Origin: a bacterium
Lineage (GTDB): Bacteria; Patescibacteriota; Minisyncoccia; Phycocordibacterales; UBA2100
Direction: 5' to 3'
Assembly: GCA_030648265.1 (NCBI GenBank)
Contig: JAUSHX010000028.1
Location: 249 to 64,248, forward strand
DNA length: 64,000 nucleotides
The stretch's first letter is position 1. The number at the start of each line of letters is the position of its first letter. This document shows, one piece after another, positions 59,550-60,850 of this stretch. The position numbers were made by a program, and so were the translations under genes. A model generated the notes under the pieces. That model saw only the letters and a program-made list of their open reading frames with translations, ran no database searches and was not told the origin of the DNA.

Positions 59550-59701
59550 AAATGCGTACGGGGAAGTGTAATGGACAATAGCAATTTGTTTTCGTCGAAA
59601 ATCTCCTGATTTTCGACGCGATTTTTGCTCCTTGGATTACCAAGGAAAAAATCGTTTGCAAAATGGCTTTAATACGATATAGTCTTGGGCACAAACCAGA
59701 T

Positions 59702-59809
59702 ATGTCGCAGGATCAACTTTTTAAACTCGCGTGTGCAAAGTGCGGCTGTATTAATGCCGACGTTACAGTCGGCACCCCGACCGCAGAGCGCGTCGGGGCT
59801 ATTGGCTAA
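59702..59809 (+). CDS. 35-codon upstream ORF duplicating the first 18 codons of rpmG (synonymously diverged), then hairpin-rich unique tail
   Basis: MSQDQLFKLACAKCGCIN… versus rpmG MSQDQLFKLACTKCGRIN…; ~75% nt, ~90% aa identity. Confidence 0.4.
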   Translation: MSQDQLFKLACAKCGCINADVTVGTPTAERVGAIG

Positions 59810-59819
59810 CTTTTATCGT

Positions 59820-59978
59820 ATGTCTCAAGATCAACTTTTCAAATTAGCCTGCACAAAGTGTGGAAGAATAAATTATTGGTCGCGCAAAAACCGCAAGCTT
59901 GTCACGCGCAAAATTGAACTGAAGAAGTACTGCAAATGGTGTCGCGCTCATATTAAGCACAAGGAGGCGAAAAAGTAG
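59820..59978 (+). CDS. rpmG: 50S ribosomal protein L33
   Basis: CTKCGRINYWSRKNRK…KKYCKWCRAHIKHKE zinc-ribbon L33 pattern, 52 aa. Confidence 0.85.
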   Translation: MSQDQLFKLACTKCGRINYWSRKNRKLVTRKIELKKYCKWCRAHIKHKEAKK

Positions 59979-60115: not shown

Positions 60116-60784
60116 ATGCTCGCCAAAACATCGGAGAAGGAAAAAGCCATAAAGTTGCGGTCACGGGGTCATTCTTTGAATGAGATTTCTGATTTGCTCA
60201 AAATCTCGAAATCATCGGCCTCACTTTGGTTACGCGACGTACCTTTGTCCGAACAAGCAAGGAAAATAATCTTCCAGAAGCGCGAGCACGCTCGACTCAA
60301 ATCTGCACTAACGCACCACGCCCAGTTGCGGAAGCGACTTGATGAAGCTGAAGCATTTGCAGACGAGACTGTATCAACAATAAAGTTGGACAAGGCAATG
60401 TCTCGGGTAATGTGTTCGATATTGTATTGGTGCGAGGGCGAAAAAACCAACACGGACAAAACTCTAACATTTGCCAACTCTGACCCTAAACTTATTGCAA
60501 CATTCCTGGCTATGTTAAGGAAAGGTTTCGAGATTAACGAGAAAAAGCTTAGGGTGTGCCTGCATCTCCATGATTATCATGACGAAAAGCGGCAAATCGC
60601 ATTCTGGTCACGGATAACTGGTATACCGGCTACTCAATTCTCGAAAACGTATAACAAGCCACATACGGGCAAACGTACAAAGGAAGGATATGCAGGATGT
60701 GCAAGTATACGGTATTATGACACTCGAATCGCTCGGCAGGTGCAAGCCACGGCGCGAGCGTTTCTAAGGAAAACGGGCCTATAG
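60116..60784 (+). CDS. hypothetical HTH-containing protein; stop codon lies inside tRNA-Trp
   Basis: N-terminal HTH (LRSRGHSLNEISDLLKISKSSASLWLR); weak LAGLIDADG-like segment SILYWCEGEKT, not asserted. Confidence 0.4.
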   Translation: MLAKTSEKEKAIKLRSRGHSLNEISDLLKISKSSASLWLRDVPLSEQARKIIFQKREHARLKSALTHHAQLRKRLDEAEAFADETVSTIKLDKAMSRVMCSILYWCEGEKTNTDKTLTFANSDPKLIATFLAMLRKGFEINEKKLRVCLHLHDYHDEKRQIAFWSRITGIPATQFSKTYNKPHTGKRTKEGYAGCASIRYYDTRIARQVQATARAFLRKTGL

Positions 60785-60846
60785 TTCAATGGCTAGAATT
60801 TCTCTCTCCAAAAGAGAAGATCAAGGTTCGAATCCTTGTGGGCCCG
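60775..60846 (+). tRNA. tRNA-Trp(CCA), CCA not encoded
   Basis: GGGCCTATAGTTCAATGGCTAGAATTTCTCTCTCCAAAAGAGAAGATCAAGGTTCGAATCCTTGTGGGCCCG. Confidence 0.75.
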
Positions 60847-60850
60847 CAAT

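Follow-up and report, generated by a model that had tools for sequence, protein, structure and literature searches.

The 64,000-nucleotide stretch of contig JAUSHX010000028.1 (assembly GCA_030648265.1; hereafter the window) comes from a Kaiserbacteria-like bacterium of the candidate phyla radiation (CPR) and carries rpmG, the gene encoding ribosomal protein L33. Directly upstream of rpmG lies a 35-codon open reading frame (ORF) that opens with a second copy of the first 18 rpmG codons, runs through a pair of GC-rich hairpins and ends 10 nt before the rpmG start codon (Table 1). This arrangement had been described in the original prediction, made from the sequence alone, and its coordinates held. 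The downstream gene encodes a complete L33 of 52 amino acids (Pfam Ribosomal_L33, E=4.5e-17). A repeat finder delimited the two copies to 55 nt each with 76% identity, and their offset of 118 nt places them in different frames. Within codons 1–18, 13 of 54 nucleotides differ between the copies, with third codon positions accounting for 10 and first positions for 3, close to the roughly 25% of mostly third-position differences first reported; the encoded peptides differ at 2 of 18 residues (A12/T12 and C16/R16). The flank-to-flank alignment of the copies scored z=12 against shuffled sequences, 13 random substitutions left at most 2 amino-acid changes and no stop codon in 0 of 200,000 simulated trials, and no comparable copy was found in a matched control region downstream of rpmG at 72 related loci. 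The similarity of the two copies is therefore not due to chance.

Both hairpins form in the minimum free energy and centroid folds (fold z-score −1.7). The description of a hairpin pair following codon 18 was likewise borne out, with one refinement: the hexanucleotide TATTGG past the hairpins corresponds to rpmG codons 19–20, so that the upstream copy resumes for 6 nt and only then breaks off. When the 44-nt hairpin pair (hereafter the element) was removed in silico, the flanks rejoined into 61 nt colinear with intact rpmG, made up of arms of 54 nt and 7 nt. The 14-nt junction between the short arm and the rpmG start codon may be a diverged copy of the 5' untranslated region, and its CTAACT matches the leader CACTAACTGAAT of the related locus L013. 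No terminator-like site or T-run follows the hairpins, and the pair had no match in Rfam at gathering thresholds or at E<=10. Exact-protein look-ups of L33, of the neighboring histidyl-tRNA synthetase (HisRS) and of a 97-aa read-through ORF returned no match. A terminator-like hairpin with a T-run was noted further upstream, and it did not align with the corresponding region of L013 or of another related locus, L021.

Table 1. Features in and around the rpmG locus (positions counted from the first letter of the window)
Feature	Position	Strand	Remarks
Terminator-like hairpin with T-run	59593-59618	+	divergent HisRS–rpmG intergenic region, upstream of the rpmG promoter
Sigma-70-like promoter (TTGCAA, 16-nt spacer, TATAGT)	59656..59683	+	native rpmG promoter, now before the remnant; from sequence, matched in relatives
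Upstream ORF, 35 codons	59702..59809	+	remnant plus read-through of the element; ATG at 59702, TAA at 59807-59809
Repeat-finder copies, 55 nt each	59701-59755 and 59819-59873		
Long arm of truncated upstream rpmG copy	59702..59755	+	codons 1–18, MSQDQLFKLACAKCGCIN; remnant of the original start
Quasi-palindromic double-hairpin element, 44 nt	59756..59799	.	from folds; single copy in the window
Hairpin 1	59756-59773		GCCGAC/GTCGGC
Hairpin 2	59775-59798		CCCCGAC/GTCGGGG
Short arm of truncated copy	59800..59805	+	TATTGG, rpmG codons 19–20
Junction or filler, 14 nt	59806..59819	+	CTAACTTTTATCGT; holds the stop codon of the upstream ORF
Intact rpmG (L33, 52 aa)	59820..59978	+	
Helix-turn-helix (HTH) protein, 222 aa	60116..60784	+	sporadic between rpmG and tRNA-Trp in other lineages
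tRNA-Trp	60775-60847		overlapped by the last 10 nt of the HTH gene
S-adenosylmethionine (SAM)-methyltransferase ORF, 205 aa	60836-61453		directly after tRNA-Trp
Longer hairpin with CCGAC/GTCGG core	19456-19481		GGTCCGACCTTGG...CCAAGGTCGGACC

We scanned the L33 protein against GTDB species genomes and obtained 80 loci, the best matches (up to 90% identity) belonging to Candidatus Kaiserbacteria and other Paceibacterota. A regex scan detected a second 18-codon rpmG copy in none of the 80; shorter remnants came to light when the 45 nt upstream of each rpmG were read. At four relatives, L021, L013, L201 and L215, a single uninterrupted rpmG sits directly behind the promoter and leader that precede the upstream copy in the window, the −10 box and leader (TATAGTCTTGG.CA.AAC...AT ATG) being common to all five. 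L201, L215 and L021 are syntenic with the window and lack the element, as does L013; HisRS identity to the window is 95% for L201, about 89.5% for L021 and L013 and 89% for L215. In L021, for example, an exonuclease gene and HisRS occupy one strand and rpmG, tRNA-Trp and a PQ-loop protein gene the other, and L215 also carries the downstream HTH gene. The comparison of relatives that the original prediction had proposed thus gave single genes in these four; the duplicate in the window, for its part, is no artefact, as the same cassette is present on 13 independently assembled contigs (see below). Overall, the element lies upstream of rpmG at 5 of the 80 loci, in three different positions, and is absent from the four relatives and from 71 other rpmG loci.

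Because the same promoter and leader precede the single rpmG of the relatives, the upstream copy in the window occupies the ancestral position. The single rpmG of L215 begins MSQDQLFRLACAKCGRINYW and shares with the upstream copy the unusual Ala12 as well as Gly15, which makes the upstream copy the native type for this subclade. Its Cys16, on the other hand, replaces an arginine that is invariant in 80 of 80 relatives, a substitution of the kind to be expected once a copy has fallen out of use. Taken together, the native promoter, the TATTGG beyond the element and Cys16 indicate that the upstream copy is a truncated remnant.

Three further features of rpmG loci were noted among the relatives. 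In many of L001–L080 (Paceibacterota) the TATAGT −10 box stands only 8–12 nt before the rpmG start codon, which implies a leaderless or near-leaderless L33 mRNA. In L201, L013 and L021 the first ~11 rpmG codons are almost invariant at the nucleotide level. Finally, L215 (positions 2875-2910; metagenome-assembled genome GCA_030674455.1) contains a 32-nt remnant of the rpmG 3' end, TGGTGCAGAGCGCACACCAAGCACAAGGAGGC, located ~130 nt past the intact stop codon and just before the HTH gene. It matches at 27 of 32 positions with differences that look synonymous, other GC-rich hairpins lie between it and rpmG, and it is a second kind of gene-end duplication at the rpmG locus.

The hairpin doublet as a dispersed repeat

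Metagenome contigs were scanned with a pattern describing the hairpin pair alone, with no rpmG sequence included. At the least, more than 120 contigs were matched, often several times per contig (2–4 in some); there was no match in viral contigs and one in the window. The doublet spans 35–50 nt and consists of two 7-bp stems built on CCGAC/GTCGG, hairpin 2 being approximately the reverse complement of hairpin 1. Among the 125 distinct copies in the matches listed, stem positions 6 and 7 of each hairpin form base pairs in 93–98% of cases vs 62–66% expected from base composition, and the outer pairs covary as CG, TA, GC and AT. In 116 of 125 copies the loop of hairpin 1 opens with G and that of hairpin 2 closes with C, giving a nearly invariant GACG...CGTC that lies on the loop side of the stems and not at the end of the element. 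The commonest loops, GCTTCG and CGAAGC, are reverse complements of each other, and the element is thus two-fold symmetric.

Among the matches listed, 13% lie within 60 nt of a tRNA gene vs 2% at random, a six-fold enrichment, and 44% lie inside ORFs of at least 100 aa vs 74% at random, the remainder being intergenic. A T-C/T-A-A/G motif adjoins the element on both flanks, and the element prefers insertion sites with T-Y-A-R on one side and Y-T-R-A on the other. For example, it is flanked by TCAG and TTGG in tRNA D-loops and by TCAA and CTT at rpmG codons 5/6. The D-loop insertions show no target duplication, as TCAG and TTGG on either side of the element make up the native, unduplicated sequence. 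Inspection of ORF lists, without a Pfam scan, disclosed no transposase-like ORF between paired copies in L159, L150, L109, L200, L165 and L114. We found no insertion sequence (IS) that could be the parent of a miniature inverted-repeat transposable element (MITE), and there is no integrase or recombinase gene beside the element among the window ORFs around rpmG. Judging from its sequence and distribution, we infer that the doublet behaves like a mobile repeat of the MITE type, or of the type of repetitive extragenic palindromes (REPs) and their doublets (REPINs), dispersed in CPR genomes.

Two related observations were made during the scan. One copy (L200, 4380-4417) falls within a ribosomal-protein operon, in the ORF for a 238-aa protein, with apparent in-frame read-through. 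A longer hairpin with a CCGAC/GTCGG core occurs elsewhere in the window, in L004 (5540-5564) and in L075 (4189-4212); it recurs in several Kaiserbacteria loci, in L075 just downstream of rpmG, and may be a terminator or a second repeat family.

Truncated gene ends beside intact rpmG and tRNA genes

The order seen in the window, namely a gene fragment, the element, 3–14 nt more of the gene and then the intact gene, is a recurrent layout. At rpmG it was found in at least five other lineages, with insertion points after codons 3, 5 and 18. In L005 and L015 the element follows rpmG codon 5 and in L052 and L072 codon 3; all four present the first 3–5 rpmG codons at the native promoter, then the hairpins (in the form xCCGAC..GTCGGx followed by CCCCGAC..GTCGGGG), a few more native codons and a complete rpmG. 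The sequence past the element is CTCATAAAG in L015 (Leu-Ile-Lys, codons 6–8), GATAG(A/G) in L052 and L072 (Asp-Arg) and CTT in L005. Similarly, the element occupies the D-loop of tRNA gene fragments located beside an intact gene. The fragment lies just upstream of the intact gene in L144 (twice), L145, L156 (twice, in tandem), L133 and L106 and just downstream in L130, L169 and L184; L165 is also listed with this tRNA-gene layout.

We excised 19 copies of the element from 17 loci in silico, and colinearity with the neighboring intact gene across the excision point was seen in 16. The resulting arms measure 15–64 nt on the long side and 3–14 nt on the short side. Some fragments are identical or nearly identical to their intact genes (46/46 in L156, 20/20 in L144, about 95% in L130), and diverged pairs such as L184 and L169 carry compensatory changes in the tRNA stems. 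The recurring unit is a truncated gene end, interrupted by the element near its truncation point and standing beside an intact copy.

In L156 (12403-12521) two perfect tandem repeats of the unit, each composed of a 16-nt tRNA-Lys fragment, the element and ~30 nt, precede the intact tRNA. Origin of the layout by simple duplication of a long target site was considered and rejected: the element lies inside the first copy and not at its end, and the 5' leaders of the near-identical tRNA duplicates are not duplicated.

Origin of the cassette and alternative explanations

A search with the 48-aa extended upstream ORF as query matched one protein cluster, P0121, found on 13 groundwater contigs (L205–L214) of another species. 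The L205-type cassette keeps the order of the window: the element follows codon 18 and is succeeded by TATTGG, the junction, rpmG and the HTH gene. Its upstream neighbor is different, an SMC-like gene in place of HisRS. From promoter to the start of the live gene the two species share about 94% identity. The remnant is ~97% identical between them, codons 1–18 of the live gene ~70% and the rest of the gene ~88% (Table 2). The compensatory C-G to T-A change lies in hairpin 2, and the junction has 3 differences. Codon spelling repeats the pattern, and the same measure between the window and L021 gave 0.22 for the remnant, 0.70 for live codons 1–18 and 0.34–0.51 for the background.

Table 2. Divergence of the window from the L205-type cassette, by segment
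Segment	Nucleotides differing	Same-amino-acid codons spelled differently
Promoter and leader	1-2/24	
Remnant	1-2/54 (L205 keeps Arg16)	0.06
Element	3/44 (C-G to T-A compensatory pair and one loop base)	
Short arm and junction	3/20	
Live rpmG, codons 1-18	15-16/54	0.73
Live rpmG, codons 19-52	10-13/102	0.32
HTH gene		0.30
Carbohydrate-kinase gene		0.40
Outside the cassette	unrelated	

The L205-type population itself contains four haplotypes made of two blocks in all four combinations. One block lies in the promoter and remnant, and the other, of ~70 nt, comprises eight linked synonymous differences in codons 18–42 of rpmG. The presence of all four combinations demonstrates directly that diverged alleles exchange short recombination tracts at the rpmG locus. 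The synonymous bias between the two copies in the window, for its part, indicates that both evolved as coding L33 for most of their separation; the remnant is not a sequence that drifted neutrally throughout. The synonymous divergence is thus most likely a result of allelic mosaicism, in which segments have different coalescence times. The original prediction had offered protein-level selection on the duplicated start or, as opposed to a recent slip, descent from another L33 allele; the second option came close to the mark, as the two copies have separate coding histories. Selection on the upstream peptide is not a likely cause of the synonymous excess. The upstream ORF shows 3 nonsynonymous vs 2 synonymous changes between the two species and varies in length and frame elsewhere, for which reason it is regarded as a by-product; it is probably translated as such.

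We consider it probable that the upstream ORF is the dead original start of rpmG, split by the dispersed element, and that a downstream duplication rebuilt the gene. The locus would then represent a tandem duplication in which ~74 nt of the gene start are repeated. Of the two copies, the first, which harbors the element between codons 18 and 19, would be a non-functional remnant on the native promoter, and the second the working rpmG. Transcription from the old promoter would proceed through the remnant and hairpins and give rpmG a structured leader of ~130 nt; ribosomes starting at the old ATG would translate the 35 codons, open up the hairpins on the way and terminate 10 nt short of the true start codon, a distance that may help re-initiation. 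After the cassette had formed, short recombination tracts from other L33 alleles would have overwritten live codons 1–18 or the remnant block. Insertion and duplication may have been linked mechanistically, for instance through template switching at the hairpins as the new copy was replicated against an uninserted sister, although this is the weakest step and speculation. Coupling is suggested by the truncation, which always falls 3–14 nt from the element whatever the insertion position, and two independent events would fit this regularity less well. A more specific version is put forward tentatively and as a doubtful proposal: the doublet, perhaps in single-stranded form at the replication fork, would insert in a way that by itself provokes a template switch 3–14 nt past the hairpins and leaves an interrupted gene fragment ahead of a newly copied intact gene. 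Such cassettes would then spread between lineages by short-tract homologous recombination and produce mosaics of the kind seen in the window. If true, it would amount to a "self-rescuing" insertion by which a tiny selfish repeat colonizes single-copy tRNA and ribosomal-protein genes in minimal genomes. Campbell-type integration of a ~118-nt circle was also considered; its geometry fits, nothing supports it, and we rejected it.

Several points weigh against an element-split original start rebuilt by a downstream duplication. No donor allele for live codons 1–18 was found among 80+ loci, the best match being 44/54, and the near identity of the remnant (~97% vs ~88%) could result from selection on the remnant and hairpin block. 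Since some bacteria can do without L33, the argument from rescue of an essential gene is weaker for rpmG than for single-copy tRNAs. The compensatory stem changes in L184 and L169 imply that the interrupted tRNA copy was once a separate functional gene, and tandem paralogues or foreign alleles account for this better than local duplication in a single step. About 100 of 122 element copies among the matches listed lack a flanking duplication, so duplication is not an obligatory product of insertion. Finally, no transposase or other mobilizing enzyme was found next to any copy in the ORF lists inspected, mobility being deduced only from distribution and site preference, and the 64-kb window holds a single copy.

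Among the alternatives, local duplication within the lineage, with copies identical at birth, could have been followed by rapid synonymous recoding of live codons 1–18 under selection, with the remnant left nearly unchanged; the target might be, for example, an AT-rich, unstructured internal start lacking a Shine-Dalgarno sequence downstream of strong hairpins. All five element-bearing rpmG genes are indeed shifted toward A/T at third positions of their first 13–17 codons relative to their nearest element-free relatives. In the window the unusually divergent live codons 1–18 have a GC content at third positions of 0.28 vs 0.66 in codons 19–52, and a hand count from remnant to live copy gave 7 GC-to-AT vs 2 AT-to-GC changes. 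The L072 live copy matches element-free L069 at 152/159 positions, so that duplication there was local; however, L072 is AT-shifted against L069 along the whole gene and not just at its start. Nor does folding show a benefit: opening the −15 to +20 region around the ATG costs 6.99 kcal/mol in the real sequence vs 6.51 with the remnant codons substituted, and the real value falls at the 29th percentile of 150 random synonymous recodings. Moreover, the two species that share the cassette recoded the live copy differently (16/54), and recombination tracts were seen in the population. We therefore regard recoding as unlikely.

The original prediction had suggested a leader peptide or attenuator sensing L33-type translation. 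In the form of an exapted leader, the remnant ORF and hairpins would now be kept for control of L33 synthesis, through translational coupling and re-initiation, stabilization of the mRNA by hairpins near its 5' end or L33 binding to them. The ~94% identity of the promoter-to-junction block next to coding sequence that differs by 10–30%, the compensatory change that preserves pairing in hairpin 2 and the identical 10-nt spacing from upstream stop to rpmG ATG in both species are all in its favor. At 3 of the 5 element-bearing rpmG loci, furthermore, the upstream ORF crosses both hairpins and ends within ~25 nt of the start. Yet recent recombinational transfer explains the conservation of the block equally well. 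The element occurs at many unrelated sites, including ORFs and tRNA gene fragments, the closest relatives (L201, L215, L021 and L013) do without it, and stops and frames of the upstream ORF vary at other element-bearing rpmG loci, the ORF ending within the element in L005 and L052. Three of the five nucleotide changes in the upstream ORF between the species alter an amino acid. The proposed alternative terminator and antiterminator structures found no counterpart, as the hairpins show no terminator-like feature, and an L33 leader is known neither in Rfam nor in the papers searched. Attenuation was thus not upheld, and retention as an exapted leader seems to us quite improbable.

The second suggestion of the original prediction was the footprint of a site-specific insertion carrying its own replacement 5' end, here the scar of a phage, island or plasmid integrated at the 5' end of rpmG and deleted to ~60 nt. 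The geometry does resemble attL/attR, with a partial, synonymously diverged copy beside an intact gene, and a sporadic gene lies just downstream of rpmG. In modified form the footprint reading is supported, what survives of it being an inserted element of mobile type. Between the copies, however, there are only 44 nt of non-gene sequence and the 14-nt junction, the 44 nt being a common dispersed repeat. The element lies inside the partial copy with 3–14 nt of gene on its far side and not between two att-like repeats, the insertion point varies by lineage (codons 3, 5 and 18), and no integrase or recombinase adjoins it among the ORFs around rpmG. More than 15 loci would each have had to be reduced independently to one and the same minimal scar, which is implausible, and such an origin is accordingly very improbable. 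An assembly artefact, a collapsed or chimeric repeat for which nothing speaks beyond the general risk of metagenome assembly, can be dismissed, given that the copies are 24% diverged and so would neither collapse nor mis-join, that the 13 contigs come from different samples and assemblers and that analogous arrangements occur in four GTDB genomes.

Downstream of rpmG, the HTH gene had been described as encoding a protein of unknown function abutting tRNA-Trp; this is correct insofar as only a weak HTH_23 match was obtained, and the gene in fact overlaps the tRNA. The 222-aa protein (HTH222) is encoded between rpmG and tRNA-Trp only in some lineages (the window, L008, L032, L052, L019, L047, L205–L214 and L215), and its stop codon always overlaps the tRNA 5' end. 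It combines an N-terminal HTH with a conserved C-terminal domain in which E107, G108, K110, N121, S122, D123, H150, H152, Y154 and H155 are invariant. We found 244 homologues at E<=1e-5, those with a named source coming from metagenome-assembled genomes of CPR/Patescibacteria. Its AlphaFold model has a predicted local distance difference test (pLDDT) score of 93 and no PDB match above a template modelling (TM) score of 0.3, and sequence families gave weak HTH matches only. HTH222 is found together with the hairpin cassette in the window, L052 and the L205-type contigs and looks like a site-specific mobile gene. Its role as a LAGLIDADG-like homing endonuclease driving co-conversion was considered and, with these structural and family matches, not established. 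The SAM-methyltransferase ORF beyond tRNA-Trp, whose mechanical start overlaps the tRNA 3' end, is absent from the syntenic L021 and L013, where a PQ-loop gene follows the tRNA. With a GC content of 0.40 vs 0.49 for the window, it is probably another insertion beside the tRNA.

Relation to known repeats and significance

REPs and REPINs are repetitive extragenic palindromes and their inverted doublets, mobilized by RAYT Y1 transposases; their hallmark is a conserved terminal tetranucleotide, GTAG or CGTC, and REPs of the CGTC superfamily are transposase-less and mostly arranged head-to-head (Di Nocera et al. 2013, PMC3733652). Like these, the element is a palindrome, short and rich in GC, whose dispersed copies lie mostly between genes but in part within them; it forms a head-to-head doublet that can fold as two hairpins or one long one, with covarying stems. 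It further resembles CGTC REPs in its nearly invariant CGTC/GACG and in lacking a dedicated adjoining transposase. In contrast to REPs, its CGTC is loop-proximal and no terminal tag, its stem consensus CCGAC/GTCGG is unrelated to published families, and its host is a CPR bacterium, a group for which we found no literature on REPs. The ORF lists inspected held no RAYT-like ORF between paired copies, again unlike REPs and REPINs. The element also recurs embedded in truncated duplicates of tRNA and rpmG ends, of which there is no mention in PMC3733652. Unlike a MITE, it is palindromic as a whole and has neither a fixed target-site duplication nor an identified parent IS.

Rickettsia palindromic elements (RPEs), reported by Ogata and colleagues in 2000, are said to be small palindromic repeats that insert into genes, including those of the translation apparatus, with function kept. 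RPEs are also discussed in PMC3733652. The element likewise enters genes, with close to half of the listed copies in long ORFs. The two differ in that RPEs are tolerated as in-frame peptide insertions whereas the copy interrupted by the element is dead, function being provided through a duplicated gene end, and their sequences are unrelated. Duplication of gene ends is otherwise associated with integrating elements, such as those with att sites in tRNA or tmRNA genes, e14 in icd and the mobile element of Allomyces atp6 with its foreign C-terminus. Islands integrating at tRNA genes leave partial copies of the gene end (PMC9897764). As in such attachment-site duplications, a partial, synonymously or compensatorily diverged gene end stands beside an intact gene and the insertion is harmless. 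Integrating elements, however, place kilobases with an integrase or endonuclease between the copies, as opposed to a 44-nt non-coding insert within the partial copy.

The locus also resembles ribosomal-protein leaders and attenuators in that a structured 5' region and a short ORF immediately precede a ribosomal protein gene. It differs from them in that the hairpins are a generic repeat, are not conserved at orthologous loci and offer no terminator/antiterminator alternative, and in that no L33 leader is catalogued. Finally, an invariant upstream copy, a fast-changing downstream copy in a coding region and nearby hairpins recall the template and variable repeats of diversity-generating retroelements. 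This candidate was rejected, as 0 of 13 differences fall on an A of the conserved copy (hand count), the changes are synonymous and there is no reverse transcriptase among neighboring ORFs. Literature on REP or MITE elements in CPR, on palindromic elements with partial tRNA duplication and on an L33 leader yielded no earlier description, and the combination of an interrupted fragment with a rebuilt gene at single-copy tRNA and L33 genes appears undescribed.

For the annotation of CPR genomes, these results mean that short ORFs and hairpins before rpmG or tRNA genes can be debris of dispersed repeats and not regulators. Gene callers can miss the real rpmG and call a junk ORF instead: on the ten L205-type contigs examined, the upstream ORF (68 aa) was called and the real rpmG on none. 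In the tiny genomes of CPR bacteria, rpmG and most tRNA genes exist as single copies. Insertion of a repeat into such a gene should usually be harmful, yet the element is enriched near tRNA genes and is accompanied there by a partial gene duplication that ends 3–14 nt from it. If insertion and duplication are one event, the mechanism would be one not described for REP- or MITE-type elements, and it would offer a way into the question of how hairpin repeats can move when no transposase is near. The rpmG locus moreover gives a direct view, at a scale of 50–150 nt, of how mosaic genes are assembled from short recombination tracts in uncultured populations.

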